Shown here piece by piece: positions 1 through 51,570 of a stretch of 64,000 nt of DNA (positions are counted from its first letter, which is position 1; each line of letters opens with the position of its first letter). The stretch lies in the IMG/VR virus record IMGVR_UViG_3300045988_179014, positions 224,001 through 288,000 of that record; one strand, 5' to 3'. The translations under genes and the position numbers were made by a program. The notes beneath the pieces are model-generated. The model was not told where the DNA came from, made no database searches, and was given only the letters and a program-made list of their open reading frames with translations. The DNA comes from a virus.

Positions 1-1111
1 TCCTTGCAGAAATCCAGACAAATGCCCTTATGGAGCATATGCCACACAAGAAGCATCCCAGAAAGCGTATGAAGCGTCCATGGCTTCCAAAACCACTATG
101 GGAATGTCGCGAACCAATAGCAAAGGTAGGACTCAAAAGGAACTCAACGAATGGGCCAAGAACTCTACAAATGTGGATGAGTTGCAACAAGTGGCCGAAC
201 AAGGAAAAGAACGTGCACTGAGAAACTTGGCAGCAAATGAACATGCCACCAGCGAACAGTTGCTTTTAGGCCGTAATAGAACCAACAATCCAGAAACCAA
301 GGAAAAGTTTGAACGGGCTGATAATTTCCCAGTTGAACACATGAGTGAGGAATTGTTGCAACATTTATTCCAACACAACTATGGCAACAAGTTGGAACAA
401 CGTAATGGTTTGAATGATGCTGGTGTTGACCGTATCATGGCTATGGGGGCTCGTGCGCTTCCGATTGCTGCCAACAGATACAATAAAGTTTCAGCTGCCA
501 AATTGCAAGAACTCACATCAGGTATGTCCAGTACTGACATTGGCTATGTTATGAGATGTAATCCACGTTATGTTCCCAAGAACATTGAGTCAATGAACAC
601 AAATGAATTAATCGCCATTGGGAGAGAATCCAATGATGCAGAGACTCTTCACCGAATAGCAACAGTTTTAACAAATAAAACTGACCGTGAACTTGAAACG
701 GCAGCTGAACAAATACTGATGAATCGAAACACATCAGATAAAACATTGAATATGCTGGTGCAACATCCAGGTATTCGTAACGAAAACAATTTTGTCAACA
801 TTTTCGCTCATCCAAATGCTTCAAATGCCACCAAACAAATAGCTGCCAAGAGGGACCGTCGTGTTGCCAGTATAGTGAAAATAAAAGATTTGGTTGCGGA
901 TAAACCCGAAACTATCAAACGTATTCAGGATACTACGCACTATGAATCTGATTACAGGAAATGTCGTTACCGCTTTGACCCTGATGTTTTGAAAGAAGCA
1001 GGATGGGATGACTATGATGTGGATACATATGTTCGTTACGAATTAAGAAACTATCTTTGGGGGCCACAATACAATTCAGCCACAGGAGAATATATCGGAT
1101 ATACGGATTAA
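1..1111 (+). CDS. Protein with shared N-terminal Cys/His module, 5'-truncated by the window edge; C-terminal domain unknown
   Basis: Frame 2 from position 2 reads PCRNPDKCPYGAYATQEASQKAYEASM in frame with ORF 80..1111. This matches the C-x6-C-P-Y..EEAQxAYExxM module seen in 7 other proteins in the window. Confidence 0.55.
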   Translation, partial: PCRNPDKCPYGAYATQEASQKAYEASMASKTTMGMSRTNSKGRTQKELNEWAKNSTNVDELQQVAEQGKERALRNLAANEHATSEQLLLGRNRTNNPETKEKFERADNFPVEHMSEELLQHLFQHNYGNKLEQRNGLNDAGVDRIMAMGARALPIAANRYNKVSAAKLQELTSGMSSTDIGYVMRCNPRYVPKNIESMNTNELIAIGRESNDAETLHRIATVLTNKTDRELETAAEQILMNRNTSDKTLNMLVQHPGIRNENNFVNIFAHPNASNATKQIAAKRDRRVASIVKIKDLVADKPETIKRIQDTTHYESDYRKCRYRFDPDVLKEAGWDDYDVDTYVRYELRNYLWGPQYNSATGEYIGYTD

Positions 1112-1127
1112 AGTCGATTCATCAATA

Positions 1128-1160
1128 CAAGAAGGTCAGAGTGTTTTATATTCTGACCTT
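1128..1160. terminator. Perfect 11-bp inverted repeat (AGAAGGTCAGA / TCTGACCTTCT) between convergent genes; likely bidirectional intrinsic terminator
   Basis: Hairpin read directly in the sequence, T-rich flank, lies between the stop at 1111 (+) and the stop at 1177 (-). Confidence 0.5.
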
Positions 1161-1176
1161 CTTTATATACGTAAAA

Positions 1177-1656
1177 CTATTTGTTTCTGACATTTTTCCA
1201 CGAATAATTTTCGATTCGAGCCTTTTCCAATAGTTCTACCAGTTGTTCGCGTTTCTGCTCACAATCAGCAATCTGCTGGTCCAATCGTTTAATTTGCCCC
1301 AAAACACCAAGCCTTTCTGTTTCCGCCAAGTATTTCTTGTGTTGACGAATACGGGAACGAATCATTGAAGCAAAACCACGGTCTGTCATCTGAATAATAT
1401 GTCGTTCCAATTTGATGTCTTGACGACCTTGAAAGCGGTCCTTCACTGTTATTACAATGTATTCATTTGTTAAATCTTTAATGGCAATGTTCTTAACGAC
1501 CCAAAACAAGTCACCTAGGTATTCCTCGTTCTTTTTATGGTAGGCGGAACACCCAAGGCTTTTCTCAACCACAGAGCGTCCCACTGCTTGTAAAGCTTGC
1601 AGTTTCAGAAAAACAAACTGACGAAACAATTTGGCATAGAACCGTTTACTGGTCAT
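1177..1656 (-). CDS. Hypothetical protein; tandem paralog of 1660..2241
   Basis: Shares DR(D/G)FASM(V/I)RSRI(H/R)QHK and LGDL(S/F)WV motifs with its neighbour. Confidence 0.5.
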   Translation of the reverse strand: MTSKRFYAKLFRQFVFLKLQALQAVGRSVVEKSLGCSAYHKKNEEYLGDLFWVVKNIAIKDLTNEYIVITVKDRFQGRQDIKLERHIIQMTDRGFASMIRSRIRQHKKYLAETERLGVLGQIKRLDQQIADCEQKREQLVELLEKARIENYSWKNVRNK

Positions 1657-1659
1657 TTC

Positions 1660-2576: not shown

Positions 2577-2649
2577 GGTGCTTCTGGCGGGAATCGAACC
2601 CACTTACGCGGTTTTAGGGACCACTGCTTGACCATTAAGCTTCAGAAGC
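2577..2649 (-). tRNA. tRNA with anticodon CUA (amber/UAG-reading suppressor type); CCA not encoded
   Basis: Manual cloverleaf on the reverse complement: acceptor GCUUCUG/CAGAAGC; D-stem GCUU/AAGC with GG in loop; anticodon stem GUGGU/ACCGC with loop CCCUAAA; T-arm GUGGG-UUCGAUU-CCCGC; discriminator A. Position 33 is C, not the usual U. Confidence 0.6.
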
Positions 2650-2702
2650 CTCCGTGAGAAGTCAAATCAAAACTCCTCACTATTCACTAGAATACCACAA
2701 TT

Positions 2703-3482
2703 TCAACTGTTTGTAAAATCAGTTTCGGCTGTCAAAGCGGTTTTTGCCAGTCCTGGACGACGTAGTGGAGGATAGATTTCTGATGCGTCCCCTGCCCGAT
2801 ATAAGTCTGATGAACGTCCACCAACAATACTTGACGTGCGTTTTGTCCCCACCTCATACAGTAATCCTGGTACTGATTGAAGTTTACGACGAAAATTGCT
2901 TGGAATGATGGAAACTCCCCACACTATTTCATAGACTCGACGTAATTCTGACATGGTGAATGTTTCATCTTCCAAAAAATGATGAGCAATGGGGCTGTAC
3001 TTAATTTTGGCTCGAACCCGCTCCAGCCCATCATGAACAATGACATCATGGTCAAATGCCAACTCAAAATCATCACTGAGAACGTCTGCAACAGGGAAGA
3101 AATGAGCTTCTGCGGCATCATCTCCGGCTTTTGGCCGTTCTACTTGTGGAGCCAATGCCACATATGCTGTAGATACCACAAAACCTCGTGGGTCTCTACC
3201 AGGATTGCCGTAGGTTTTCAACTGTTCCAAGTAGCCATCTTCAATGGTTAAATTAGTTTCTTCCTTCAACTCGCGGGCAGCTGCATCATCCAACGATTCA
3301 TTGGTGTTAACAAAGCCCCCGGGAAGCGCCCATTTTCCTTTATTCGGATGGTCACCACGTTTTATCAACAAAATACATAGTTGCCCATTCCGGATTGTGA
3401 AAATTATCAAGTCAACTGTCACACCAACAGATGGATAGTCTGACATGTTATAACCAGCCAGAAAATCTTCTTCATCAATCAT
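2703..3482 (-). CDS. NUDIX hydrolase with C-terminal extension (ADP-ribose pyrophosphatase or NrtR-like)
   Basis: Nudix box GGFVNTNESLDDAAARELKEETNL (G-x5-E-x7-RE-x2-EE); adjacent to pncA and pncB. Confidence 0.65.
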   Translation of the reverse strand: MIDEEDFLAGYNMSDYPSVGVTVDLIIFTIRNGQLCILLIKRGDHPNKGKWALPGGFVNTNESLDDAAARELKEETNLTIEDGYLEQLKTYGNPGRDPRGFVVSTAYVALAPQVERPKAGDDAAEAHFFPVADVLSDDFELAFDHDVIVHDGLERVRAKIKYSPIAHHFLEDETFTMSELRRVYEIVWGVSIIPSNFRRKLQSVPGLLYEVGTKRTSSIVGGRSSDLYRAGDASEIYPPLRRPGLAKTALTAETDFTNS

Positions 3483-3551
3483 TGGTACTCCTTGTTCAAT
3501 AATGCCACTACTACTATTATATCGATAAGAATCAATATGATTATTAAGGTA

Positions 3552-3758
3552 CTACCATTGCTCTGATTGAGTGATTTTATGATTGAGTCGATGATGCCAT
3601 GTTATGTGAACAGTTCTATTGGCAACCAAAGAACCACATAGAACACAGATTGATAGCACAGGTGATTCTCCGGTTTTAGGATTCAATACTGGTAGCCTCA
3701 CAAATTCTGGAACTGGGAATGATTTGAGACCCCAAGGAGATTGGCTATCTTCATTCAT
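3552..3758 (-). CDS. Small Cys/His-containing protein (possible zinc ribbon)
   Basis: ATGA start/stop overlap with the pncA stop, suggesting translational coupling; CVLCGS...HITWHH. Confidence 0.3.
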   Translation of the reverse strand: MNEDSQSPWGLKSFPVPEFVRLPVLNPKTGESPVLSICVLCGSLVANRTVHITWHHRLNHKITQSEQW

Positions 3759-4345
3759 AGTATCTCAACGCCTGCTTTAAGAAAATCGTTAGTCAACAAT
3801 TTACGAACCTGTTCATTGTTAATTCCTACACAGAATCTTGACAAAATAGTAGTATGTAACCCTTCACGTACTGCATCCAAAGCCGTTTCTCGGACACAAT
3901 AATCAGTTGCAATACCCACGATAGCCACATTGTTTACGCCGAGTTCACGAAGCGCAGCAGCCAATGTTGTTCCATCTTCGGTCATTCCTTCAAAACCTGA
4001 ATAAGCTGCTGCAAACATACCTTTATGTACAGCAATAGAAACTCCACGTCCTCGCTCAGCATCTTTTCGTAATGCATTTGCTAAAGTTGGTACAAGACCT
4101 GCTCCTTCAGTATCAGCTACACAATGAACCGGCCAAGAATCAACAAAATCAGGGTTACTGGAAAAATGCGAACCTGGTTCAATATGCCAATCCTGAGTAG
4201 TGACCAGATAGTCATATTCATTCAAAGTCCCGTCATTAATCGCATCAGCCAAATCATGTGCAAGTTGAGACCCACCAGTAACGGCTAATGCTCCACCCTC
4301 TACGAAATCGTTCTGCACGTCCACAATAATCAATGCTGTGTTCAT
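3755..4345 (-). CDS. pncA: Nicotinamidase/pyrazinamidase (isochorismatase family)
   Basis: N-terminus ALIIVDVQNDFVEGGALAV is typical of PncA and isochorismatase-fold enzymes. Confidence 0.7.
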   Translation of the reverse strand: MNTALIIVDVQNDFVEGGALAVTGGSQLAHDLADAINDGTLNEYDYLVTTQDWHIEPGSHFSSNPDFVDSWPVHCVADTEGAGLVPTLANALRKDAERGRGVSIAVHKGMFAAAYSGFEGMTEDGTTLAAALRELGVNNVAIVGIATDYCVRETALDAVREGLHTTILSRFCVGINNEQVRKLLTNDFLKAGVEIL

Positions 4346-4346
4346 A

Positions 4347-4895
4347 TCATATTCCTGATTTTCTGCTTGTCCAGTTTAAATGTTCTTTCGCCCAGTCCAA
4401 TATACGAATGATATGTTTCAACTCAAGTCCATTGTGACTATTTGGTTGAATAACCAATGATGGCGCCAAGGTATTACCACGTACATGGTCTTCCCAAAAC
4501 TGTGGCGCTTTGTCATCTATCCAAACAAAAGGTCGTGGATTGTGTTGTTGGTGGTCTATGATGTAGTCTGCTTTCCACCGTGTCCAAGCTTTATAACCTT
4601 TTGTTTGAACATCAAAATTGGCAGGACTGTGTTGTGACAAATCTGCAAGACCCATTATTTCCGCTACTTTGCAAATATTGGCACCATCATTCCAAGTTGT
4701 GTGCCAAATGGAATCAAAACATCCAGTTGACAAAAGCTGCGATATCAATTGGACCGATTCCGGATTCCAATTGATTTGCGTTTTATGTGACAAAATTTCG
4801 CTATTATGTGTAGCGATACGTGCCCTAGTCGTGTTTGACGATGGCGTAATATTGTACACACCGTTGAAATCTGAGTATATTACAAAATTCATCAC
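4347..4895 (-). CDS. HAD-like hydrolase (degenerate motif I), function unknown
   Basis: IYSDFNGV resembles a DxDGx motif, with FVWIDD as motif IV; sits between pncA and pncB. Confidence 0.35.
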   Translation of the reverse strand: MMNFVIYSDFNGVYNITPSSNTTRARIATHNSEILSHKTQINWNPESVQLISQLLSTGCFDSIWHTTWNDGANICKVAEIMGLADLSQHSPANFDVQTKGYKAWTRWKADYIIDHQQHNPRPFVWIDDKAPQFWEDHVRGNTLAPSLVIQPNSHNGLELKHIIRILDWAKEHLNWTSRKSGI

Positions 4896-5211
4896 AGGTT
4901 CCTTAAATCAGTATCCATAATGTTTCCATTTTATCCCAGACCAGAGACAACAACAAAACCTGTGCATACTGTTCTTCAAGTTTCAAGTTTTCATGGTTCT
5001 AAGCGTCAAGGAAACATTTAGACACCTTGAAACCAGCATTACAACAATTTGTACAAACTGGAGTAAATCAGTCAACATCGTTTCCAATCACGACCACAAT
5101 GAATCACGCTACATTCGTTACTCGTTTCCAACATTGTCTCGACTGGAGAAATTAAATAATCTGTTGACAGCAATCATCTCTGAAATGTTTCATTGGTTGT
5201 TGTAATATGGG

Positions 5212-6507
5212 TTATTTTTCAACAACTTCAAACATGGGTTTTCCCGCAGAAGTCAACAATGCCTCTTTGGGCAGAGTACTCAGAGTGTACGCATGAAAAG
5301 CACGAGATTCCTCTATTGTTGGAATATGGTAGTTTCCTTCATTGACATACATTATTTGTACAGGATGAATTGAACCAGATGCGATATCGTCATGCTTCAA
5401 CGACCCAATTCGATAGTATTCACCAGTCATGATTCCATGGTCATAGGTGCGATAAGCTATTTTCAGCCCGCCAGTGGTTTTCTTCCCAGATGCATTTTTC
5501 GCTACTGGAACCATCTCTCCATTACTGTTTTCCCGTTCTACCAATTTGAACACCATTGAAGCAGTTGGATGACCTGAACCAGTTACCACACGAGTTCCGA
5601 CACCAATCCCATCAACTGGTGTTCCTTGGTCAACAAGTTCCGCAATAGTGTATTCATCAATGTCCGAGGAAAGAATAATTTTAGTGTTCACAGCTCCAAG
5701 TTCATCCAACAGGTTACGAGCTTTGACGGTTTCTTCATGCAAATCCCCAGAATCTATACGAATACCACCCAAACTAGGCCCAGCAACTTCTATTGCATTA
5801 CGAATACCTTGTTCAATGTTATATGTATCCACCAGTAATGTAGTTTCAACACCCAATGCATCAATTTGTGCTTGGAAAGCAGATTTTTCATCCTCAAAAT
5901 CTAATGTGAACGCATGGGCTGAAGTGCCAGTGGTAGGAATACCATAACACAATCCAGCTTCCAAATTTGATGTGGCACTGAAACCAGCAATATATGCAGC
6001 ACGAGCAGAATCAATAGCTGCCTTCTCATGAGTACGTCGTGAACCCATCTCAATCAGTGGCAGTCCTTGAGCGGCCACAACCATTCGTGAAGCAGCTGAC
6101 ATTACAGCAGAATCGTGGTTCAGGATGGACAATAGTATGGTTTCCAACAAAACAGCATCACCAAAGAACCCTTCAACTGTCAGAATTGGACTGTTGGGGA
6201 AATAGACGTCCCCTTCACGATATCCTCTGATACGTCCACTGAATGTATAATCACGAAGATAATCAATCGTATCAGAATGAATCATTGGGTCATTTTTCAA
6301 CAAATCAAGCTGTTCTTCTGTGAACCTGAAATCCTTCACTGCTTTAACCGCCCTGTTGACACCTCCCACAACCCCATAACGGCGACCTTTGGGAAGTGTA
6401 CGAGCAAACAAATCAAATGTGGCTTTATCAAATGCATGACCTGATTCCAAAGCCGCTTGCAGCATTGTGATTTCATACTTGTCTGTTTGAAAGGCTGTAC
6501 TTGCCAT
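5212..6507 (-). CDS. pncB: Nicotinate phosphoribosyltransferase
   Basis: 431 aa; N-terminus and overall pattern resemble the NAPRTase family (DKYEITM...); linked to pncA. Confidence 0.7.
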   Translation of the reverse strand: MASTAFQTDKYEITMLQAALESGHAFDKATFDLFARTLPKGRRYGVVGGVNRAVKAVKDFRFTEEQLDLLKNDPMIHSDTIDYLRDYTFSGRIRGYREGDVYFPNSPILTVEGFFGDAVLLETILLSILNHDSAVMSAASRMVVAAQGLPLIEMGSRRTHEKAAIDSARAAYIAGFSATSNLEAGLCYGIPTTGTSAHAFTLDFEDEKSAFQAQIDALGVETTLLVDTYNIEQGIRNAIEVAGPSLGGIRIDSGDLHEETVKARNLLDELGAVNTKIILSSDIDEYTIAELVDQGTPVDGIGVGTRVVTGSGHPTASMVFKLVERENSNGEMVPVAKNASGKKTTGGLKIAYRTYDHGIMTGEYYRIGSLKHDDIASGSIHPVQIMYVNEGNYHIPTIEESRAFHAYTLSTLPKEALLTSAGKPMFEVVEK

Positions 6508-7352: not shown

Positions 7353-7439
7353 GGCGTTTCCTTTCAGAATGCAAACAGGTCATCATGCAACACAATTGTT
7401 GTGACCATACTGTGTGCGAATATCACTCACATCTCACAA

Positions 7440-8642
7440 TCAATCCACGTTTTTCAGTTTCAACAATGCTGTCAAAGTCATTTCCGCATCTGCTAAAGCT
7501 CTATGCGCTCCTGTATAGGACTGTCCTGATGCTTCCACCAATGATTTGTTGGTGTTGTCAGGTGTTTCGGGCAGGAAGAATGTACTGACCATGCGAGTGT
7601 CCAATACTTCCAGCCCATTCGCTTGTAATGCATTGAAACCGAAAAGATTGTGCTGCAACTGTCCAATTTCAAATTTGGCATTATGCGCCACCATGACAGA
7701 ATCACTCAACATGGACAACACCTTGGTTTGCTTTTCTGGGTCATTCACGAAAACTTCTTTGTCTTTAATCTCATCCCATGAAATATGATGAACATGCTCA
7801 GCACCAGTACCATGAACTTTGGCGAAGTCTTGAGGAACTCCACTCATGAATGACATGGTTTCAACACGACCATCTGGATAACGTTTGACAATACCTACTT
7901 CAATGATGTTTGAATATGGACCTTTGTCAACATATCCACTCTCTTGAGAAGCGGCAACCTCCAAATCAATTGATACCAAAGGTTTATCTGTTCTCAAAGA
8001 CATATTGGCCCACATATGACGGTATGCCTCAGTGCGGGTCATTCCAGTTGCCATCAAATCATCAACTTGTTTCTTCACGTCTTCAGTTGACATGCCTGAA
8101 TACGAGGAAATCACTTGATTCGCGTCGGCCTCGTTTTCAGATGTGATATCAGGGTGGAAATTGTAAGGACCGTTCTTCTTCTTTTGTTGCCGTTTCCAAT
8201 CCTCAAATTTTGCTTGATTCAATGCTTTCTGGTCATCTCTTCGTTGTTGCAATTGGGCTCGTTCTTCAGAAGACATGTATCTTTCAGCTTCACGTTCTTT
8301 AGCTGTAGCCAAGAAATTCAATTGTTTGGCTTTTTGCACCGTCTGGAACCAACGAACACTGGCCAGAGCTTCTGGATTACCTTCAGCGGTTTTCAGTTCG
8401 TTGGCCAGTTTCCACATATTCCTTTTTGCAGCCCGAGATTTCAGAAACAACTCCTCTATTCGTTCAGCATTTGATGTTGAGGACTTGGACATTGTGTTCA
8501 CTACTTGATTGGACATTCTACGTTCATATGCGTCACGTGCTTCAGCTATAGAGTTGTAGTGGAACTCATCAGAATATGGGCATTGTCGTTTAGCAGAGCA
8601 ACGATTTACAACACCATTTTGAGGGTTTAAATGAAATAACAT
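7440..8642 (-). CDS. N-terminal Cys/His module fused to a DEDDh 3'-5' exonuclease (DnaQ-like)
   Basis: N-terminus NRCSAKRQCPYSDEFHYNSIAEARDAYERRM; C-terminus IDLEVAAS...HNAKFE...H-x4-D exonuclease motifs. Confidence 0.6.
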   Translation of the reverse strand: MLFHLNPQNGVVNRCSAKRQCPYSDEFHYNSIAEARDAYERRMSNQVVNTMSKSSTSNAERIEELFLKSRAAKRNMWKLANELKTAEGNPEALASVRWFQTVQKAKQLNFLATAKEREAERYMSSEERAQLQQRRDDQKALNQAKFEDWKRQQKKKNGPYNFHPDITSENEADANQVISSYSGMSTEDVKKQVDDLMATGMTRTEAYRHMWANMSLRTDKPLVSIDLEVAASQESGYVDKGPYSNIIEVGIVKRYPDGRVETMSFMSGVPQDFAKVHGTGAEHVHHISWDEIKDKEVFVNDPEKQTKVLSMLSDSVMVAHNAKFEIGQLQHNLFGFNALQANGLEVLDTRMVSTFFLPETPDNTNKSLVEASGQSYTGAHRALADAEMTLTALLKLKNVD

Positions 8643-20872: not shown

Positions 20873-22063
20873 TTGGAGGCCCATCCTATGTATCACATCA
20901 ACGATAAAGACGAATCGAAACGCTGTTATGCCAAAAGCATGGAAAGGTGTCGATTCTACCGTGCTGATGACCCTCGACACTATGAAACCGCAGAAGAAGC
21001 CCAACAAGCAGCAGAGGAAAGGATAAGAAAGAAAGCGTTGAAAGAAGGGCATGGAACCACCAATTCCTTGAGTAAACGCACCATGAATGAACATGATGAC
21101 AAAGACATTAATTTTGCTGGAATGGAACGTGATGAACGTACTCGCCAAATGCAGGAAACTCTTGACCGTGAGGTTGAACAACTAATCAAAGATGGACGAT
21201 TGGCAAAATTCTTGGATGCGATGTCCAAAAATGGGGTACAGAGATGGAGCGCCAACAACATTCTGTTAGCAGCTCTGCAATTGCGCTCATATCGGAAACG
21301 AAACGGATTACCAGTTACCAACAATCTATTTGACACCATAAATGAACTTGATGCTTGTGGAGCCAAACAATGGAATGAACGAGGACGTAAAGTCATCTCT
21401 GGAAAAGGTTCAGCTCTTTACATTCTGGCACCATTACAACGCAAATATCCTGTTAAAGACGCTCAAGGTAATCAATTAGTGGATGAAAACGGCCAACCAG
21501 TCATGCAACGTTACACATATGGTTGGCGTTCTGTAGCTGTTTTTGATGTCAGTCAAACAGAAGGTGAACCAGTTCCTCAGAATCCACTACAAATGAAACC
21601 CGTCACTACAAAAATCAAATCGCAATATGTGGATGACATGAAGAATGTGGTTCAATCATATGGATACAAAGTCGTTCATGCGGAAACAGCGTCAGACCCA
21701 GAAAGATTGAAAGGAACTTTGGGCGCGACCAATCCCACCACAAAAGAAGTGACAATAGACCCTCGTTTATCAGAAGCGCAACAAGCGGCTGTTCTAGCAC
21801 ACGAATTAGGCCATATTGCAATGGGGCATTTGGATGAGGATATGCAGGAATATGTAAAACATAGAGGAATTAAGGAAACTGAAGCTGAGGCGCTTGGTTA
21901 CATGTTGCTGCAAAGAGCTGGACTTGGACCAAAGGAAGGCGCCGCATTCTCAGCTCCTTATGTTGCAGGTTGGTCTAAAGGTGATATGAGTATGGTGCGT
22001 ACAGCTTTGAATAAAGTCACTAGTCGTTTCGGTAAACTGATGGATATATTGAAATGGGATTGA
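20873..22063 (+). CDS. N-terminal Cys/His module fused to an ArdC-like antirestriction / HExxH metallopeptidase (ImmA/IrrE-like) domain
   Basis: N-terminus MYHINDKDESKRCYAKSMERC...AEEAQQAAEERI; C-terminal HELGHIAMGH zinc-peptidase motif; overall ArdC-like architecture. Confidence 0.5.
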   Translation: MEAHPMYHINDKDESKRCYAKSMERCRFYRADDPRHYETAEEAQQAAEERIRKKALKEGHGTTNSLSKRTMNEHDDKDINFAGMERDERTRQMQETLDREVEQLIKDGRLAKFLDAMSKNGVQRWSANNILLAALQLRSYRKRNGLPVTNNLFDTINELDACGAKQWNERGRKVISGKGSALYILAPLQRKYPVKDAQGNQLVDENGQPVMQRYTYGWRSVAVFDVSQTEGEPVPQNPLQMKPVTTKIKSQYVDDMKNVVQSYGYKVVHAETASDPERLKGTLGATNPTTKEVTIDPRLSEAQQAAVLAHELGHIAMGHLDEDMQEYVKHRGIKETEAEALGYMLLQRAGLGPKEGAAFSAPYVAGWSKGDMSMVRTALNKVTSRFGKLMDILKWD

Positions 22064-25814: not shown

Positions 25815-26792
25815 TCAATTTGAGTATTTGTTGATAATGTTTTGTAACCTGCTGGTAGTGTTGCACAATTGTTTCCATATCACAGCTTTACCACGTTCTG
25901 AAATTGGCAGATTCAGCTTCATCATGGAATGTTTGAAAACCTCTACTACTGGAAGATACTTGATAGCTTGTTTTTTCGTTTTGTGTCTTCGTTCAGGAAT
26001 GTCATTGTTGTAAAGCCCTGTTGCGTTGTCAATGAAATCGCTTACTTTTACTAAAAATACTCCAGGATGATTTTCAATTGCTTTGGCCACGTGGTCGTGA
26101 TAACGCTTGTTCTTGACTTCTGTTGACATGCGTGATTTGTCCTGGTCTGCAATGTAATCATTTGTCACTGCATCCACCAAATGAAGAACACGAGGACCAT
26201 AAGCGTCATTGATGTGTTGACGTAATGTGTTTCGTGCTGTCAATTCATCACAATCAGTTACCCCGTGAAATTTGTCCATGAAAACTCTTGCCCCATCTTC
26301 AATTGTGTCATGAAGAACAGCAGCAACAATTACATCTTGGTCCTGTGCACCCAAACGTATCAAACGTACCGCATTACGTAGAGGATGTTCAATATAAGGC
26401 GTGGTCGCAAAGTTACCTCGATTGCCTCTGATTTGATGTGCATGCAGGATAGTAGCCAAATCTACTGACGAATCGACAATTTCAGCATTCAAGCCCAACA
26501 ATGCTGCTTCATGCCGTAATGTTTGAGCCAGTTGTGCCGCATCCAGTTTTTTCAAAGGTGTTTCACGTAACACTTGCGCTGAACGAGCACATAATTCTTC
26601 TGCACTTACACTAATTGAGGAATGGGGATGGTTTCGGGGCTTTTTTAATGTTGGAATCATTGAGTGGGCCATCATGGATTCATGGTTTTGTTTTGCAGCA
26701 TCAGCAGAATCACCATGAACCAGAGGACAATGACCTTCGCGAGCATCACAGCGAACAGATTTTCCCAATGTCTCGCTGAAATGGTACCTCAT
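25815..26792 (-). CDS. N-terminal Cys/His module fused to a RelA/SpoT-type HD hydrolase ((p)ppGpp / alarmone hydrolase-like)
   Basis: N-terminus RYHFSETLGKSVRCDAREGHCP; EHPLRNAVRLIRLGAQDQDVIVAAVLHDTIEDG matches the SpoT hydrolase HD signature. Confidence 0.6.
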   Translation of the reverse strand: MRYHFSETLGKSVRCDAREGHCPLVHGDSADAAKQNHESMMAHSMIPTLKKPRNHPHSSISVSAEELCARSAQVLRETPLKKLDAAQLAQTLRHEAALLGLNAEIVDSSVDLATILHAHQIRGNRGNFATTPYIEHPLRNAVRLIRLGAQDQDVIVAAVLHDTIEDGARVFMDKFHGVTDCDELTARNTLRQHINDAYGPRVLHLVDAVTNDYIADQDKSRMSTEVKNKRYHDHVAKAIENHPGVFLVKVSDFIDNATGLYNNDIPERRHKTKKQAIKYLPVVEVFKHSMMKLNLPISERGKAVIWKQLCNTTSRLQNIINKYSN

Positions 26793-37634: not shown

Positions 37635-37736
37635 GATGACACTCTCCTTGGTCTAGTGGTGAACAGCTATGCGTTAAATATCAGTTTGACCCTTAACACT
37701 GTCATTGTACCAATTTGAACCCGAAAATAACTTATG

Positions 37737-38579: not shown

Positions 38580-38618
38580 CTGTTTACAATATTACAAATG
38601 ACAATTACATGATGCCAA

Positions 38619-39488: not shown

Positions 39489-39509
39489 TATGGGTATGAT
39501 GATGCTAAT

Positions 39510-39731
39510 TTATGGAAGAGTTGACCAAATTTCTTTGCAGGTCGGGCAAATAGGAAATTCCTTGTAATCTCCGAAAGGTACCCACTTTTTACCACACAAC
39601 GCGGTAGCCGGAATACCATCAAAAATGGCACGCTCCAGCTCATCTTTTCTCACATAATGGGCGAACTTATCGTGATTCCCATCATCATTCACAAGTTGCT
39701 TTTCTTCAACCAGCTCATCCAAAACAGTCAT
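39510..39731 (-). CDS. Small Cys-containing protein (DUF3039-like?)
   Basis: CGKKWVPFGDYKEFPICPTC motif. Confidence 0.35.
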   Translation of the reverse strand: MTVLDELVEEKQLVNDDGNHDKFAHYVRKDELERAIFDGIPATALCGKKWVPFGDYKEFPICPTCKEIWSTLP

Positions 39732-39987
39732 TCATACTCCTATCAATCAAAACCTTGAATCCATGATAACACTCCTTCACCACTTGAACAAGTTTGAAGT
39801 TGTCACCAATCAACAGCACTAGATAAACTCATTCCCCCGACCGAACCTGTTACAAGGCAAACACAATTGAATCCTCCTTCATGTATCTTGTGTTTTTGTT
39901 GAGATTATCAGAACAGGAGTGTGGATTGTTTTAACAAAATAGTTCCAAGCATGTGTTATTATGTTAGCTTCTCTATTATGTTATTCA

Positions 39988-43267: not shown

Positions 43268-43270
43268 TGA

Positions 43271-44443: not shown

Positions 44444-45180
44444 AAATGTGCGAAAAATGCTTGCACGCTATTGTCGTTATTGTCAGTGTTGATAGTTGAT
44501 GTTTCTTGTGCTGGTCTGTCCGTTATTCTAAAAGTTGCGTGAACACTGTGCCGAAACTGTTCTTGTCTCAATTCCAGTGCTGAATTAACTGTTGAAATGT
44601 AAAGAACTTGGTTGGGGCGATAATTCATTGAAACAGTTGGACTCTTAATTGTCCCCAATTTCAGGCTTGTGTCGTCTTTGGGAGCTATTACCATTCGGCG
44701 TAGTTGTTTGTAGTGCCGTAAAGACATCACCAGTGCACCTTTGTGAAATTCGATTAATGGACGATTACCGAATCTGGGTGGTTCACGTTCCGGTAATGAA
44801 GCTTGTATTCTCAGTTCGCCTGTAACGGCATCAACAACATTGGAGGGTGGTGGAGTAACCCCAGGAGCGTATAAGAACCCTGAGGCCCCATTCTGAGCCT
44901 CCCAGGCCACATAAGCAACCCCAGTTACCACCAGTGAACCAATAGCAGTTTGCCGTGTATTGAAACGCACCACTGGATGGTCACAGTCAAACACCCAATC
45001 ATGTTTCAATACAGGTACTTCATAACCAATTGAGACAGTAGTGTTTTCTTCAGAATCGTTTTTGGAAACAAGTTGGATTGAAGTTGATACCGATGGTGGC
45101 GAAGTTACCAGCTCTCCTGTTCGTAATCGTCTACGTATGTAGGTAATGAATGGTTTGGGGTCACGTAAATTTACACTCAT
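44440..45180 (-). CDS. Hypothetical protein in the Ter cluster
   Basis: ORF overlapping its neighbours (operon). Confidence 0.35.
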   Translation of the reverse strand: MSVNLRDPKPFITYIRRRLRTGELVTSPPSVSTSIQLVSKNDSEENTTVSIGYEVPVLKHDWVFDCDHPVVRFNTRQTAIGSLVVTGVAYVAWEAQNGASGFLYAPGVTPPPSNVVDAVTGELRIQASLPEREPPRFGNRPLIEFHKGALVMSLRHYKQLRRMVIAPKDDTSLKLGTIKSPTVSMNYRPNQVLYISTVNSALELRQEQFRHSVHATFRITDRPAQETSTINTDNNDNSVQAFFAHL

Positions 45181-45731
45181 TACAGAGACACCTTAAAATC
45201 ATTGGCCACTTGAACAATACCACCAGCATATCCTTGACCCACCGCACGGAACTTCCACTCAGTATTACGACGATAAATTTCCCCCATGAGAACTGCATTG
45301 ATGTCCGATGAGGATTGGGGCAACTCAAAACGAACCAATTCAGAAAGCGCACGGTCCATTATCCGCATATGAGCATGACGAACTGCACCAAAATTACCGG
45401 GATTACGAACTTCCGGGTCCACATATAGGAGAAAAACCATTTTGGACACATTTTCTGGCACTGCTGACAACGTTATTTCGATTTGGTCATTGTCTTCATT
45501 CCCTTCAACGTACTGAACAGTTCCATCAGTTGTTGACAATTGGTTGAAAAACAGAAAATGCTCATCACTCAAAGCGTGACCATTTTCCCCCACAAGAATA
45601 ACGGCTGGAACGATTTGCAGTTGTGGTCCTGAACCTTGAATTGTGTTCCACCCAAACCCAACCACCAAATCATTCAGTAAAGGGTTTTCTCGTGTGATGG
45701 ATACATTCGCGCCAGGTTGCAATGAGGCCAT
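45180..45731 (-). CDS. terD: TerD-family stress protein
   Basis: TerD-domain similarity to the two downstream paralogs (GWN...GENG, NFGAVRHAHMRI). Confidence 0.7.
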   Translation of the reverse strand: MASLQPGANVSITRENPLLNDLVVGFGWNTIQGSGPQLQIVPAVILVGENGHALSDEHFLFFNQLSTTDGTVQYVEGNEDNDQIEITLSAVPENVSKMVFLLYVDPEVRNPGNFGAVRHAHMRIMDRALSELVRFELPQSSSDINAVLMGEIYRRNTEWKFRAVGQGYAGGIVQVANDFKVSL

Positions 45732-45794
45732 AGTATCTCCTTATTCTAACGATTAACCTAATAATAGCACGAAACATATAATATGGCACATACA

Positions 45795-46268
45795 TCAGAG
45801 CGATTGAGAAAACCGTTCCTCCACAAAAGCGGTTTGTACATCAAGGTCTCGTTCCACTCGTTGTTTCATGGATTCCAACAACTCCAACATGCTTTTTTCA
45901 TAATTGTCACATTGAGTCAGCAATTGTTTGTCCGCAACACTGTCATCACAACGTTCTTCAGCTGGCAATTGATTGAAAAGATTCAAAGCATCAGGAATGT
46001 AGCTGGTCAAAGTGGCCTTGATTAAATATTCCTCTTCTGCACGAATATTATATGTTGTCAAGAAAGGACGGGTTTTACGTAACAAATCATTTATTCCACG
46101 TAATCGGGAATAAACTCTTGTGGATACATATGCTGAACATTCGCGTTCATACCAATCCAGCATATCCAACCATTCATCCATTTTCTGTACAAAAGGTACA
46201 ACAGGTGATGCAACTGGAGGAACAGGTTGCTGATTTTTCTTGCGAAAGAGTTTGTCAAACATTTCCAT
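45795..46268 (-). CDS. Hypothetical protein (Ter cluster)
   Basis: ORF only. Confidence 0.35.
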   Translation of the reverse strand: MEMFDKLFRKKNQQPVPPVASPVVPFVQKMDEWLDMLDWYERECSAYVSTRVYSRLRGINDLLRKTRPFLTTYNIRAEEEYLIKATLTSYIPDALNLFNQLPAEERCDDSVADKQLLTQCDNYEKSMLELLESMKQRVERDLDVQTAFVEERFSQSL

Positions 46269-46324
46269 GCCTTACCAGAAAAGGAGGGGCGAACATGAAC
46301 CACCCCTCCTCATCTCAAATAGAT

Positions 46325-47554
46325 TCAATTACCAAGCTGTTTCCTGGAAGAATCAGGAGCCGTCAAAACAGCATCTTCCTGAGATTTCATACGTGAAAGA
46401 ACTGGTTCAGCTCTATGCAATTCATTACCTAGAGCATTAATGGTTTGTGCCATGCTTTCATTTGCCTTTTGTTTGAATTGCTCCACTTCATCCAATGTGG
46501 CATAAATGTTGTCAAATGCTTTGGTCAGGGTTTCCACCGCTACCCCAGAATTCACAGCTTGTTCATGTACACGAGAAGTGTTCTGTCGCAACATAATAGA
46601 GGTCTGTTCAATGGTGTTGTTTGTTACAGTATTGACTGCATCGATTTGGTCCAACACCAGTTTTTGGTCATCCAGCGCTTGAGCAACAATAACCGCTGTC
46701 CGTAGAGCAAAAATGGTTGTGGTTCTGGCGCGGTCCACTCCTTTAATCAATTCCACGTTGTTCTTCTTGACCAAATCCATTGCCATGTACCCTTGAACTG
46801 CAACAGCCAATTGGGTCATCAAATCCTGACGCCGCTGACGAACTGGAAACAACAAATCTGATTCCACTGCGTTCGCTTCATCAATCCGTCCAGCTCGTTT
46901 CGACTCATCTATCTTTTCAACCAACGAATCGTCCATTTTCTCGGCAAAAACAATGTATTCGTTGAGTTCACCCATGTTTTTCCACAATAAGCGCTTCTCT
47001 TGTTCCAGCGAGGCATTGTCTTTCATCAACTCATCTTGGCCTGCTAGAAGAGATTTCACAATGTGGTCCAACTGTCCTTGTGCATTTTCGTATTTTTGGA
47101 AGTATTTACGAATTTTCTTACCGCCAGGAAACAAACCCAAGAATTTTTGAACACCGGTCAAATCAGCAGCATTGGGTGTTAAGTCCTCAACTGTGGAACG
47201 AAGTTCAGCAAGTGTTCCAGCAACTTTTTGTGTGGCATCCCCTGCATTATGTGAACCTGACACTGATGAAGACCGACTCTGCAACAAACGATTTGGGCCT
47301 TCAGAGGAACTAACCACTTGGTCATGCCCCAACGATTGAACATCTTTGACCAGTTGACCAAACTCTGGGGAATGCGGATTGAGGGTAATAGCATGACTCG
47401 CTAGTTGATTTGCTTGACTGCTGATTTCCAGTTCTCTTGTTTGTGTCAATGCTGGAATCAAACCAGAAGCTTTTTCAGGTGCAACTTTTTCAACTGGTTT
47501 CGTTGTTTCCAGTTGTAATGGTTGTTGAATTTCTTCAGGAGGTGTGAGTGTCAT
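46325..47554 (-). CDS. telA: TelA/KlaB-like toxic-anion-resistance protein
   Basis: ~400-aa largely helical protein between TerD genes; typical Ter/Kla operon context. Confidence 0.5.
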   Translation of the reverse strand: MTLTPPEEIQQPLQLETTKPVEKVAPEKASGLIPALTQTRELEISSQANQLASHAITLNPHSPEFGQLVKDVQSLGHDQVVSSSEGPNRLLQSRSSSVSGSHNAGDATQKVAGTLAELRSTVEDLTPNAADLTGVQKFLGLFPGGKKIRKYFQKYENAQGQLDHIVKSLLAGQDELMKDNASLEQEKRLLWKNMGELNEYIVFAEKMDDSLVEKIDESKRAGRIDEANAVESDLLFPVRQRRQDLMTQLAVAVQGYMAMDLVKKNNVELIKGVDRARTTTIFALRTAVIVAQALDDQKLVLDQIDAVNTVTNNTIEQTSIMLRQNTSRVHEQAVNSGVAVETLTKAFDNIYATLDEVEQFKQKANESMAQTINALGNELHRAEPVLSRMKSQEDAVLTAPDSSRKQLGN

Positions 47555-47654
47555 ATGAATTCCTTTTGATTCTATGGATTTTTATGCTGAAACGGATAGG
47601 GTGGAATTGGTTTTGCTTCCTTCCCACCCCATCCGCTTTGATTATTCATCACAA

Positions 47655-48236
47655 TCACACATTTACCCCAAAGTCACGTGCAATACCTGCCAGTCCACTG
47701 TTGTAACCCTGACCAATAGCGCGGAACTTCCAACCTACTCCATTATTATCACGATATAATTCAGCAAAATTCAAAGCAGTTTCAGTGGATGCGTCTTCAG
47801 ACAAATCGTATCGAACTACTTCGGCACCAGACAATGCGTCCAACAGCCGAACATAAGCGTTACGAACCATACCAAAATTCTGTCTACGTGTATCAGCTTG
47901 GTCGATGGATACAGCAATGACGATACGTTCTACATCTGTGGGCACTCGACTCAGGTCAATCTCAATAACTTCGTCGTCCCCATCGCCTTCACCAGTACGG
48001 TTGTCTCCCTGATGAACGACAGAACCACTTTCATGACACTTTTGATTGTAAAAAACAAAGTCGACATCACTGCGAACTTTTCCATTAGAGTCTAGTAGGA
48101 TGGCAGAGGCGTCCAAATCAAATTGGTCTCCTGATGTGGACCGAACATCCCAACCCAGTCCTGCCAATACCTTTGTTAATCCAGGAGCTTCTTTTGCCAA
48201 TGAAATGTTGCCACCTTTGGACAATGAAATAGCCAT
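47655..48236 (-). CDS. terD: TerD-family protein
   Basis: MAISLSKGGNISLAKEAPGLTKVLAGLGWD is the canonical TerD N-terminus. Confidence 0.8.
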   Translation of the reverse strand: MAISLSKGGNISLAKEAPGLTKVLAGLGWDVRSTSGDQFDLDASAILLDSNGKVRSDVDFVFYNQKCHESGSVVHQGDNRTGEGDGDDEVIEIDLSRVPTDVERIVIAVSIDQADTRRQNFGMVRNAYVRLLDALSGAEVVRYDLSEDASTETALNFAELYRDNNGVGWKFRAIGQGYNSGLAGIARDFGVNV

Positions 48237-48276
48237 GATTTTTCCTTTCGTATTTGATGTTATTGTTTAATCTATA

Positions 48277-48873
48277 TCATGCTACTAGTTGACGTGCTTT
48301 ATTCACCATGTCTTGAACTGTTCGTCCAGGAGCAAATTGACCAATAGCAGCAAACTCCCAACCTGAACCAACACGGGAAAGGCGAGCAATGAACACCCCA
48401 GTAGTGTTATGAGATTCCGCCAGGTTGTAACGAACAATCTCTTTCTCAGCGCCATCTGACAAATCAACCACCCGAGCGAAAACATTCTCCACATCATTAA
48501 AGGTTTGCCCACTGTATGAATTAATTGTGAATACAATATGTTTCACATTGGAAGCAACCTGATTCAGGTCCACAATAATTTGTTCATCATCTCCATCGCC
48601 TGAACCAGTGAGGTTGTCCCCAGTGTGTTTAACCGAGTGGTCCTGTGATGTCAAATGGTTGAAGAAAACTGTTTCAGCACGTGAATCTGAAGTCAACAGA
48701 ATAGCAGAAGCATCCAAATCAATTTCGGCGCCACCACTGCCACCAAAACGGAAGAATCCACGCTTTTTACGTTGAGCTTCATCCCAACCCAGCCCTAAAC
48801 GAACTCGTGTCAGTGTAGTACCATCGTTTTTCGCCAAGGAAATGCTCTGTCCCTTGCTTAATGAAAGTGCCAT
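48277..48873 (-). CDS. TerD-family protein (TerE/TerZ-like paralog)
   Basis: MALSLSKGQSISLAKNDG...LGLGWD; a GGSGG insertion. Confidence 0.75.
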   Translation of the reverse strand: MALSLSKGQSISLAKNDGTTLTRVRLGLGWDEAQRKKRGFFRFGGSGGAEIDLDASAILLTSDSRAETVFFNHLTSQDHSVKHTGDNLTGSGDGDDEQIIVDLNQVASNVKHIVFTINSYSGQTFNDVENVFARVVDLSDGAEKEIVRYNLAESHNTTGVFIARLSRVGSGWEFAAIGQFAPGRTVQDMVNKARQLVA

Positions 48874-48908
48874 GTTAAACTCCTTTTACAAATAGGATAG
48901 GTAATTGA

Positions 48909-50000
48909 TTATTCAGTAGTTTCTGTAATTTTTGCTTCGGAACGGTTACGAACAATTGACGAGATGAAAGCAGCCAGAATGAGCACAATACCTACTAAAC
49001 CTGTTACAACTTCTGGAACAGGAATGGCAATGCTGACTACCAGCAATACTGCCAAAGCACCAATCGCCCAGTGAGCCCCATGGTCCAAGTAAACATATTC
49101 ATTCAATGTACCTTTACGGACAAGATAGACTGTGATGGAACGAACAAACATGGCTCCGATAAGACCTAGACCAAGAGCTATAATGATTGGGTCCGTGGTA
49201 ATGGCCAACGCACCAATCACTCCATCAAAGCTGAAACTTGCATCCAACACCTCCAGATAGAGGAAACTGAAAAATGCAGCCTTTCCGACCAATTTGATGG
49301 CCCCCGATTTTTGCTGGGTTTCCTCATCTTCCTCCAAACGTTTCTCAAAGAAAGTCCCCAACCCGTTGACCAGCAAATAGGTGAGAAGTCCAGCCACTCC
49401 AGCAATCATTACAGTAGCAGCTTGCTCCTTCGCCTCCATAGATAAAACTATTAATGCCAACAGTGATACCAGAACAGCAGCATTGTCAAGTTTTCCTACT
49501 TTTGCCAAGAATTTTTCAATGGGTTGCAACCAGTGAAGTTCTCGTTCTGGGTCAAATACCCAATCCAGGAACAACATTAACAGGAACATGCCGCCAAATG
49601 CTGCGATTTGTGGGTGTGCTGCATGAAGAATGTATGCATATGTTCCTGGAGTCTCTATGGAACCTCCACGTAACGCCAACTCCCATGCTTCAACAGGCGA
49701 TAAACCAGTGGTTACACCAACAATAAGTATGGGAAACAGAATCCTCATACCAAAAACTGCAATCGCAATACCTACTGTCAAGAAGATTTTCTGCCAGAAT
49801 TCCGACATCTTCTCCAAAATACGAGCATTCACAACAGCATTGTCAAATGATACGGACACTTCAAAGGCACCCAGCAATAAAACAAGTAGGGCTCCTGTCC
49901 ATGACCCATAAAGAAACCCTACACATAGTGCAATAATAGACACCACACCCGACCAACCAAAAATTCGTAATGGATGGTCCGTGGATGATGTTTTGTTCAT
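48909..50000 (-). CDS. terC: TerC-family integral membrane protein
   Basis: Multiple TM helices; directly downstream of TerD genes. Confidence 0.55.
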   Translation of the reverse strand: MNKTSSTDHPLRIFGWSGVVSIIALCVGFLYGSWTGALLVLLLGAFEVSVSFDNAVVNARILEKMSEFWQKIFLTVGIAIAVFGMRILFPILIVGVTTGLSPVEAWELALRGGSIETPGTYAYILHAAHPQIAAFGGMFLLMLFLDWVFDPERELHWLQPIEKFLAKVGKLDNAAVLVSLLALIVLSMEAKEQAATVMIAGVAGLLTYLLVNGLGTFFEKRLEEDEETQQKSGAIKLVGKAAFFSFLYLEVLDASFSFDGVIGALAITTDPIIIALGLGLIGAMFVRSITVYLVRKGTLNEYVYLDHGAHWAIGALAVLLVVSIAIPVPEVVTGLVGIVLILAAFISSIVRNRSEAKITETTE

Positions 50001-50288
50001 GAATTTTCCTTCAAGTTGTTTGTGATGACATCATACCCCTGAATATAATGTAACATGAAAGTCACATAATACTGTGTACTGATGATTGATTGGTCCCTGT
50101 TAAAACTATATTTTACTAACTGTTTACAACTATGTTTGAAAATAGTTGAACATTGAAAGAGGCTCAAGCTAATCCTGAGCCTTTTCTGCAATCTGAAATT
50201 TTGTGTTCCAACTTCATCAATGTTTGTATTTTCAATTCAACATAATTATCATGTCTAACTATTGCGGTGAAACATGCATTATATGAAT

Positions 50289-50549
50289 TCACTTGAGATA
50301 TACTGAGCTGAATTCATGATTTGAAATTGCACTTACTGTTCCATTGGGCCAACGTACTACCCAGTCGCCTGGTTGAAACACCTGAATTGTACTTGTTGAC
50401 ATATTATCCAATGTCATACTTGGGCCTGAGTACATATGAGCTTCCACTGATGGTGCAGAAGACCATCCATTCTCTTCATGTACAGGATGAAAAACCTTTG
50501 CTTTAGCAGCATCAAAATACGCAGCGTCAAAATACGATGTTTCGTTCAT
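50289..50549 (-). CDS. Hypothetical small protein
   Basis: ORF only. Confidence 0.3.
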   Translation of the reverse strand: MNETSYFDAAYFDAAKAKVFHPVHEENGWSSAPSVEAHMYSGPSMTLDNMSTSTIQVFQPGDWVVRWPNGTVSAISNHEFSSVYLK

Positions 50550-50766
50550 AGCTCACTTTCGATAGTTGTCCCCATCATATTAACGTATTCACAGGTCAGG
50601 AGACACAGTCCAATTATCCAATGTTTATTTTACAAGTGAAAGAAAAATTCAAGACCATAATCAAACTATCATGCAAAAACTATAATAGAATCTGTGTTAA
50701 GTCCAACTGCTTCTAAAACTTGACAATCAGTATAACTCAATAATGTGTTTTAAACAACAATCTCAA

Positions 50767-51570
50767 TTATAGTGTACGAATTTGTTCTGGGAACCATGCT
50801 ATCCAATGCGAGGTTCCTTCTTGTTCAAAAGTGACATGTACTCCATCCCAACCAGTGTGTTTTGCCAGTGACCTACGGAATTTTTCAGCATTGTCACCAT
50901 CACCGAACAGTTCCTCCATTTGAGACCATGTAGCATTTTTGAAATGTTGTTCAAACATTCTCTCACGCATGACATCCAGTTCTTCACGACTCCACCTGTC
51001 TTGGTCCCAGAACTCTTCCACATAATCACCCAATGGATTCATATTGTCATCGTCGTCCGGTTGAGCATATATGTTGGGAACATCTTTCAACATCTCACGT
51101 ATCGCTGATGATGGTATTGTAATCTTATTGACACTCATATTTTCGTGACCGTCAATGATTACGGGGTTACGAATGTTCAAATGTACTGCTTTCACAAAAC
51201 TCCCATAACCCTTGGATGTTTCTTCATCTGTGTTGAAATAGAACCCGCTACCATAGGAATCATTGCCATGACCCGTGAATTCGCTGTCAAAATGGTCAAA
51301 ATCCACTGAACTCCCATGAAACACAGTCAACAATTTGCCATCACCATCACGAACCACTGAATCATTCCATTCTGTATCGGATGGACGAGTGGGAAGGTTG
51401 CCATTGAATTCCTCTGTCAGCATTTTTTCAGATGCTTCTGTGGCGGCTGCTTTGGAAGTGAAATGTTCTGGTATGGACCCATCTGATTGCTTGAATTTAC
51501 AATTGTTTTCAGTTTTTGCATGACATAATCCGGGTTCTTTTGTTTCAGGATTTATATGATAACGCGCCAT
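50767..51570 (-). CDS. N-terminal Cys/His module fused to a possible H-Y-E (PARP/DarT-like) ADP-ribosyltransferase-fold domain
   Basis: ARYHINPETKEPGLCHAKTENNCKF...ATEASEKM; LLTVFHGSS...YGSGFYFNTDE resembles the PARP HGS / GxGxYF elements. Confidence 0.35.
   Translation of the reverse strand: MARYHINPETKEPGLCHAKTENNCKFKQSDGSIPEHFTSKAAATEASEKMLTEEFNGNLPTRPSDTEWNDSVVRDGDGKLLTVFHGSSVDFDHFDSEFTGHGNDSYGSGFYFNTDEETSKGYGSFVKAVHLNIRNPVIIDGHENMSVNKITIPSSAIREMLKDVPNIYAQPDDDDNMNPLGDYVEEFWDQDRWSREELDVMRERMFEQHFKNATWSQMEELFGDGDNAEKFRRSLAKHTGWDGVHVTFEQEGTSHWIAWFPEQIRTL

Follow-up and report, generated by a model that had tools for sequence, protein, structure and literature searches.

The stretch of DNA analysed here (the window, 64,000 nucleotides) spans positions 224,001-288,000 of the IMG/VR virus record IMGVR_UViG_3300045988_179014, and eight otherwise unrelated enzymes encoded on this huge-phage fragment are headed by one small domain of about 45 residues with a His-Cys-Cys-His (H-C-C-H) signature, hereafter the head. 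The head is a new and widespread H-C-C-H mini-domain, and in a hyper-polymorphic family of effectors carried by invading DNA elements it is the N-terminal part that stays constant. An earlier note on this DNA, made from the sequence alone, had claimed that at least eight open reading frames (ORFs) start with a common Cys/His module; translation and profile searches bear this out. A hidden Markov model (HMM) built from the aligned heads was compared with the 1,192 stop-to-stop segments of at least 30 residues in the six frames of the window and recovered the eight listed genes and no others, at E = 3e-26 to 5e-9; the best of the remaining segments was at E = 0.23. The similarity between the window heads is thus far beyond chance, and these scores rule out chance or compositional resemblance as its source. 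A Shine-Dalgarno-like sequence is present 5' of each of the eight genes. Their products are 177-400 amino acids (aa) long and contain one recognisable domain behind the head (the payload) wherever a match was obtained:

Member 1, 1..1111, plus strand: lacks its 5' end, which lies outside the window (complete protein 380 aa); head at about 2-100, corresponding to head residues 12-44; HMM E 5.1e-9; payload an alpha-helical repeat region with no Pfam match, clustering with three other head proteins.
Member 2, 7440..8642, minus strand: head 8487-8642 (aa 1-52); HMM E 2.6e-23; payload a DEDDh RNase T-type exonuclease, aa 223-392 (Pfam RNase_T 1.3e-12; PHROG 192).
Member 3, 14179..14796, minus strand: 205 aa; head 14674-14796; HMM E 4.3e-21; payload a 2H-SAK phosphoesterase (Pfam 2H-SAK 1.1e-19).
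Member 4, 16030..16563, minus strand: 177 aa; head 16399-16563; HMM E 4.3e-25; payload a basic helical tail with no match in Pfam or PHROG.
Member 5, 18321..19193, minus strand: 290 aa; head 19026-19193; HMM E 3e-26; payload possibly Rossmann-like, judging from a low-confidence model.
Member 6, 20888..22063, plus strand: 391 aa; head 20888-21046; HMM E 2.7e-22; payload an M78/ArdC-like zincin peptidase (Pfam Peptidase_M78 1e-8; ArdC-N 0.048, sub-threshold; PHROG anti-restriction 4.4e-6).
Member 7, 25815..26792, minus strand: 325 aa; head 26643-26792; HMM E 3.2e-20; payload an HD_4 (RelA/SpoT-type HD) phosphohydrolase (Pfam HD_4 1.4e-7; PHROG 990 8e-15).
Member 8, 50767..51570, minus strand: 267 aa; head 51400-51570; HMM E 5.2e-21; payload an ART-PolyVal ADP-ribosyltransferase (ART; Pfam ART-PolyVal 2.1e-14).

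All eight ORFs lie where the earlier note had placed them, with corrections at three 5' ends. Member 3 probably starts at ATG 14796 rather than at GTG 14811 (public gene call, 205 aa) and member 6 at ATG 20888 rather than at TTG 20873 (public gene calls). The window opens at head residue 12 of member 1, whose full gene is L005:10546-11688; the complete N-terminus read from locus L005 is MYHTTPEGRTLPCRNPDKCPYGAYATQEASQKAYEASM, and the 380-aa protein in the public assembly starts MYHTTPEGRTLPCRNPDKCPYGAY. A ninth, degenerate head lies about 8 kb outside the window start (L005:19336-20480, E 1.3e-6). A protein identical to member 4 is encoded on human oral metagenome contigs of 337,400 and 344,924 bp. 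Five of the payloads that the earlier note had proposed (exonuclease, 2H phosphoesterase, ArdC-like peptidase, HD hydrolase and PARP-like protein) are backed by Pfam. Its methyltransferase-like assignment of member 5 could not be established: this payload has no Pfam or PDB sequence match, its sole PHROG match is family 19090, which carries no functional annotation, and its model (predicted local distance difference test, pLDDT, 60) gives weak Rossmann/methyltransferase matches (E >= 7e-3, template modelling (TM) score about 0.2).

The residue pattern first drawn up for the heads, running from Y-H through C-[PR] to H-[FY], is mostly right and has four exceptions in the window. Three of these are F-H for Y-H in 7440..8642, C-K for C-[PR] in 50767..51570 and H-G in 25815..26792; the fourth, in member 1, is discussed with the proposed role. 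Only the two Cys are invariant among the window heads.

Fold and conservation of the head

Conservation was profiled on 370 non-identical head copies from many genomes, aligned to the profile. The putative ligands H, C, C and H are conserved at 99, 99, 99 and 98%, respectively, and the aromatic residue ahead of the first His at 98%. The Ala following the first Cys reaches 94%, the Pro following the second Cys 74%, the turn Gly 79%, the Ser/Thr at the helix N-cap 88%, Ala37 97% and Glu42 84%; Ala40/Tyr41 and Met45 are also conserved. Apart from the ligands, the conserved positions are structural (the turn Gly, the helix N-cap and an Ala/Tyr/Met face of the helix), and the combination of the H-C-C-H tetrad with this structural conservation is the signature of a small metal-stabilised fold. 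An AlphaFold2 model of the member 4 head, based on a 69-sequence alignment (mean pLDDT 80.4), contains strands at residues 5-9 and 12-16, a short helix (24-27), a bridge (32-33) and a helix (36-51), with the putative ligands on adjacent elements; a full-length model from three sequences predicts the same head fold, followed by a low-confidence linker. The earlier note had described a Cys/His module followed by a helix, and the tetrad together with the predicted hairpin-knuckle-helix is most reasonably read as a zinc site followed by a helix.

The head does not correspond to any named domain, as had also been supposed. No Pfam-A 2025 (E<=0.1) or PHROGs v4 (E<=0.01) match covers it in the eight window proteins, no Pfam model does so in 144 homologues or 148 metagenomic members, no NCBIfam 20.0 model in the 144 homologues, and isolated heads match no named family even at E<=10. 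In a profile search of all PDB sequences the best E-value was 0.42, the matches being generic strand-helix units of RRM and WGR domains. A classical C2H2 zinc finger is ruled out by the ligand order and the fold score. Profile searches of the kind proposed in the earlier note matched no known domain, and the Cys/His positions align in 98-99% of the 370 copies. A literature search retrieved no paper describing the module. Foldseek comparison with viral models pointed to three uncharacterised proteins from a single metagenomic virus, 'Siphoviridae sp. ctHip2' (25-33% identity, TM 0.65-0.70), which, judged by these models, are further family members on a contig annotated as viral.

Distribution of the head in proteins and genomes

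An exhaustive HMMER profile search of 1.84 billion representative proteins returned 3,912 matches to the head at E<=1e-3, including 86 at E<=1e-10. Among the best 150 of the 3,912, which were inspected, 149 are genuine. The head starts within the first 12 residues in 143 of these 149 proteins, two or three heads are present in 13 (about 9%), and a few proteins have the head at the C-terminus. Several proteins of 61-92 aa are head-only.

No tblastn match was obtained with the consensus head or a three-head protein in deposited phages (50,697 genomes) and plasmids, and the window DNA has no near match among deposited phages. A degenerate DNA pattern for YHINPxTGxPxxCxA gave no match in IMG/VR and five sites in 185,579 GTDB species genomes (a Clostridiales metagenome-assembled genome (MAG), Gordonia, Paucilactobacillus and two small MAG contigs). 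A looser version without the Pro codon, applied to JGI metagenomes, led to 101 loci, many of them on contigs of 200-730 kb. A six-frame scan then counted 208 heads in 104 loci, often in uninterrupted tandem arrays, with eight genes in 14 kb at L025, seven at L014, seven at L056, and ten in 21 kb of an 828-kb contig.

Some of these arrays lie on very large contigs: L116 on JGI Ga0540622_0000002 (828,236 bp), L018, L044 and L063 on Ga0308170_10000007 (727,102 bp), and others on Ga0308157 contigs of 674-728 kb. The neighbours on the 670-830 kb contigs are T4-like early genes. The largest phage genome known to us is about 735 kb, and the 828-kb contig, if it is a phage, would be larger. TnpB/Cas12f-like (OrfB_IS605) genes are found a few kb from heads on unrelated contigs (L115:3719-5017 and L120:2556-4133).

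Payload diversity and evolution of the fusions

BLAST grouping of 305 members with masked heads separated them into 194 unrelated payload groups, 147 of which are singletons, and a Pfam match to the payload was obtained for only about 12-26% of the members sampled. Among 107 long members from a profile search with concatenated heads as query, about 15 carry T4 Rnl1-type or other RNA ligases. Further payloads recognised by Pfam are CCA-adding enzyme, 2H-SAK, PNK/zeta-like kinases, RNase T, YqaJ and HD/HD_5; ARTs, GNATs, methyltransferases, nucleotidyltransferases, GmrSD_C and MvaI/BcnI nucleases, AAA+ ATPases and TelA also occur. RNA-end repair is a visible theme of this repertoire. The earlier suggestion that the payloads are of the counter-defence kind agrees with the presence of ART-PolyVal, 2H-SAK, ArdC-like peptidase, HD, exonuclease, RNA ligase and CCA-adding domains.

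With such payloads, the head could be a nucleic-acid-binding zinc finger that brings enzymes to their RNA, tRNA or DNA substrates. Its predicted shape is beta-beta-alpha, like that of zinc fingers, the tandem copies in about 9% of the inspected members recall finger arrays, basic residues are semi-conserved at head positions 3, 16, 18 and 38, and many identifiable payloads act on nucleic acids (Rnl1-type, CCA-adding, 2H, PNK-like, RNase T, YqaJ, restriction-type nucleases and methyltransferases). However, the head is slightly acidic (mean charge -0.9, 59% of heads being negative) and other payloads do not act on nucleic acids, and we regard this function as unlikely.

The head has been gained or lost on at least one protein that is otherwise conserved, since a 654-aa YqaJ + RNase T protein of the window (23120-25084, minus strand) is headless whereas its homologue P0171 (586 aa, same two domains) is headed. 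Within metagenomic loci the mean head identity is 0.41-0.56, versus 0.41 globally, and the best match of each head is always elsewhere. The window heads are mutually about 19-33% identical, and the longest DNA word common to any two of them is 11 nt or less. Heads as divergent within as between genomes, with no common DNA word above 11 nt, are therefore kept by selection at the protein level. Judged from these sequence comparisons, the head-payload fusions are old, each held by selection on the protein, and do not stem from recent duplication or recombination. DNA-level cassette recombination between heads is ruled out by the shortness of the common words, and the within- versus between-genome identities give no sign of concerted evolution with a genome-specific partner.

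The head might alternatively be a self-association module joining the effectors of one element in a non-covalent complex, that is, a split version of the polyvalent proteins, giant polypeptides with 2-15 effector domains each that are encoded by phages and conjugative elements (Iyer, Burroughs, Anand, de Souza and Aravind, 2017; PMC5512222). Effector domains of polyvalent proteins indeed occur here as separate headed proteins, many per genome. Conjugative elements, however, carry a single member, and the heads within one genome have no more than 25-55% identity to each other. We consider self-association very improbable.

Genomic settings of head genes

In ENA ERZ27262748 k119_28504 the window is found in reverse orientation at about 58.1-122.1 kb, and its gene content is that of the early/accessory region of a huge phage. 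It also encodes a T4-type polynucleotide kinase/phosphatase (PNKP), an SbcC-like ATPase, a ribonucleotide reductase beta subunit and a ResIII+T5orf172 helicase whose closest relatives are found in gut phage contigs and Lak megaphages. In the metagenomic loci, the non-head neighbours of the arrays are rIIA, rIIB, polynucleotide kinase, RNA ligases, topoisomerase II, NrdD/G, thymidine kinase, NAD-dependent ligase, DNA methyltransferases and homing endonucleases; among the 25 families listed of 118 matched there is no phage head or tail family. These neighbours support a phage origin and an early-region setting.

A second setting is provided by conjugative elements. In a conserved element found in at least nine loci, a single head gene, whose product of 256-272 aa has a helical-repeat payload, is flanked by genes for a NERD protein and a DnaG-type primase, with a GHKL ATPase and a TraG/TrwB-type coupling protein encoded next to them. 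A further head gene has a TrbL/VirB6-like gene on one side and an FtsK/SpoIIIE-like gene on the other. These elements with type IV secretion systems (T4SS) have coupling proteins and no capsid. Two members are present in a small Paucilactobacillus island next to ylqF, rnhB and dprA, and one Gordonia member lies near serine recombinase-like and Lsr2-like genes (in both cases genes were recognised by eye). Copy number differs accordingly: tandem arrays are expanded in huge phages, and one or two copies are found in Gram-positive-type conjugative elements and islands. Since T4SS-bearing elements and chromosomal islands also carry the head, its shared function cannot depend on a capsid.

These settings bear directly on another reading, conceivable for the phage members but unlikely in our view, in which the head targets effectors to the capsid or serves as an ejection signal. 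By docking on the scaffold, portal or inner body, it would have the effector packaged and injected together with the DNA, the head perhaps being removed by the prohead protease; it would resemble the T4 capsid targeting sequence and MuF fusions, except that this signal would be a folded zinc domain. Trafficked effectors have this architecture of a constant N-terminus and a variable effector part, the N-terminal bias is strong, and huge-phage genomes contain many paralogues. The A-x-E of the head helix also resembles S/A/G-x-E and L/I-x-E, which we take to be the prohead-protease sites of phiKZ-like and T4-like phages. Moreover, the payloads overlap domains predicted to be delivered with DNA (ART-PolyVal, 2H-SAK and ArdC-like; PMC5512222, PMC9503650). 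Such a signal nevertheless fits poorly with heads in conjugative elements that have TraG/TrwB, TrbL and FtsK-type genes but no capsid, with heads in islands surrounded by housekeeping genes, with tandem, C-terminal and head-only forms, and with huge-phage neighbours of the early/nucleotide-metabolism type. No MuF or portal Pfam domain is present in the eight window members or among the families listed for the 144, 148 and 107 members (25 of 27 payload families for the 148, the commonest families for the 144). Heads do not co-vary with the genome, as a capsid-specific ligand might predict, and no relatives occur in the deposited phage genomes.

A shared adaptor as the proposed role

We propose that the head is a shared adaptor which tethers diverse payloads to one partner common to all these settings, a reading to which we give somewhat less than an even chance. 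The head would be an autonomous domain of about 45 residues, with a beta-hairpin bearing [YF]-H, a C-x-A-x2-3-G-x-C-P knuckle, a third short strand with H-[YF] and a 15-residue helix (E-A-x2-A-Y-E-x2-M); a single zinc ion on the H-C-C-H tetrad most likely stabilises the whole. A flexible linker would join it to the payload, a single effector that is often an enzyme acting on RNA/tRNA ends, nucleotides, nicotinamide adenine dinucleotide (NAD)/ADP-ribose or DNA and that usually has no match. The partner would be present wherever such elements operate and would probably belong to the invaded cell or to the incoming nucleoprotein, not specifically to a capsid; new effectors could be recruited simply by fusion behind the head. 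The shared targeting or adaptor head suggested in the earlier note therefore survives in its generic form as the best reading, while its example of virion packaging or ejection is weakened.

Several observations weigh against this proposal. The 370 copies show no clearly conserved exposed patch for binding beyond the semi-conserved Glu (84%). The head of member 1 is devoid of the second His (CPYGAYAT). The window is attributed to a phage from its gene content and relatives, not from capsid genes. Sigma-70-like sites are not in excess in the window (53 versus 49.7 in shuffles), and k-mer enrichment 5' of genes revealed no convincing shared promoter motif. Finally, the conservation of structural residues, taken alone, fits a stabilising cap with no partner equally well.

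Such a cap would act in cis, as a zinc-stabilised folding nucleus, a shield of the N-terminus against host proteases or N-degron recognition, or a timing switch based on a degron, zinc or redox state. Nearly all conserved positions being structural, the strictly N-terminal placement and the occurrence in any genetic context, including islands, speak for it; ClpS genes near head arrays in two huge-phage loci are only suggestive. Head-only proteins and tandem heads are hard to explain by a cap, and it is not obvious why one would be selected across thousands of lineages, with 98-99% ligand conservation, on unrelated payloads. We consider a cap improbable.

The shared adaptor can be given a more specific form, in which the head loads free-standing effectors onto the nucleoprotein or a pilot protein of DNA transfer, so that huge phages and conjugative elements alike would bring a customisable enzyme set into the recipient cell along with their DNA. 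This version seems to us rather unlikely; if true, the family would parallel the polyvalent proteins in a modular, non-covalent manner, and the head would be the first delivery tag common to capsid- and T4SS-based transfer. Identification of the binding partner would show how such elements organise or deliver their early effectors, and the head, should it prove transferable as a tag, could serve to steer cargo. The head is in any case a short, easily searched marker for up to several thousand protein clusters, mostly with no known C-terminal family. Because it marks host-takeover and counter-defence regions, it offers a guilt-by-association route to new effectors, among them anti-defence, RNA-repair and NAD- or nucleotide-signal-degrading enzymes.

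Other genes of the window

On the minus strand, the regions 10466-14064, 9052-10095 and 2703-6507 together contain three tandem Alt/VIP2-type ART paralogues and, beside them, an ADP-ribosylglycohydrolase and an NAD-salvage set (NAPRTase, nicotinamidase, Nudix-NrtR and HAD_SAK_2).

The common N-terminus of the three ARTs, MCR(LAS)IRRCPSHSDPVAIAARNARRR, contains C-x6/7-C-P-x-H plus a basic helix and resembles the second half of the head minus the YH hairpin; the head HMM has no match there.

A headless T4-type PNKP (Zeta_toxin/AAA_33 + HAD_PNKP; 14812-15966, minus strand) lies between the genes for the headed 2H phosphoesterase and the headed basic tail, and PNKP genes are again found beside head genes in other huge contigs (L043 and L062). 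The region 35593-50000 (minus strand) contains a complete Ter-type stress-response cluster on this phage-like genome (TerC, three TerD, TelA, C-C bond lyase, PRTase_2/TRSP, StiP/PELOTA_1 and ATP-grasp R2K), as well as DUF3039 and adenylosuccinate synthetase; TelA is a head payload in other genomes. At 2577-2649 (minus strand) ARAGORN detected an amber-suppressor tRNA (anticodon CTA), which it labelled tRNA-Pyl. TAG recoding has been reported for some huge and crAss-like phages, and this tRNA hints that TAG is perhaps recoded in part of the genome of about 340 kb, the window genes being read normally in code 11. A 263-aa protein encoded at 56373-57164 (minus strand) has no Pfam match, and its similarity to PHROG 7625 ('head morphogenesis', E 3.5e-9) is confined to the C-terminal third of that family; it may represent an effector domain which in other proteins is joined to a MuF-like head protein.

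Comparison with known systems

The functionally closest known system is that of the polyvalent proteins, minus their defining multi-effector architecture. Both are carried by phages and conjugative elements and have ART-PolyVal, 2H-SAK ('Swiss Army Knife'), ArdC-type metallopeptidase, HD, nuclease and GNAT effectors in common; HAD_SAK_2 is adjacent in the window, and the presumed early counter-defence or host-takeover role is alike. The head proteins differ in placing one payload behind a common head, with many such genes side by side, and the text of the polyvalent-protein paper (PMC5512222) mentions no zinc ribbon or cysteine-based head. The effector repertoire and the carriage by phages and conjugative elements are thus found in the head family, and several effectors in one polypeptide are not.

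Polymorphic toxins and MuF-fused effectors likewise combine a constant N-terminal module with a variable C-terminal 'warhead', as does the head family with its 194 payload groups among 305 members. Unlike them, the head family has no secretion-system, MuF or portal domain, and no immunity genes or downstream cassettes were recognised here. No known trafficking domain is present in the window members, where the head itself begins at residue 1-5. Head paralogues are also old and divergent, with no DNA identity that would allow cassette exchange.

The T4 capsid targeting sequence, the T4 internal proteins and Alt resemble the head family in their N-terminal placement on early host-acting proteins. 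Alt-like ARTs are present in the same window, yet the three Alt/VIP2-type ARTs are headless. The T4 targeting sequence is a peptide about 10 residues long with its cleavage site at L/I-x-E, whereas the head is a conserved folded H-C-C-H domain of about 45 residues with occurrences outside phages as well; the folded domain and the presence in conjugative elements argue against identity of the two. Classical beta-beta-alpha (C2H2) fingers and small zinc knuckles share with the head a hairpin and helix, two Cys and two His, and occasional tandem arrays. The head is thus a new domain within a familiar architectural strategy, that of a constant head followed by a variable payload.

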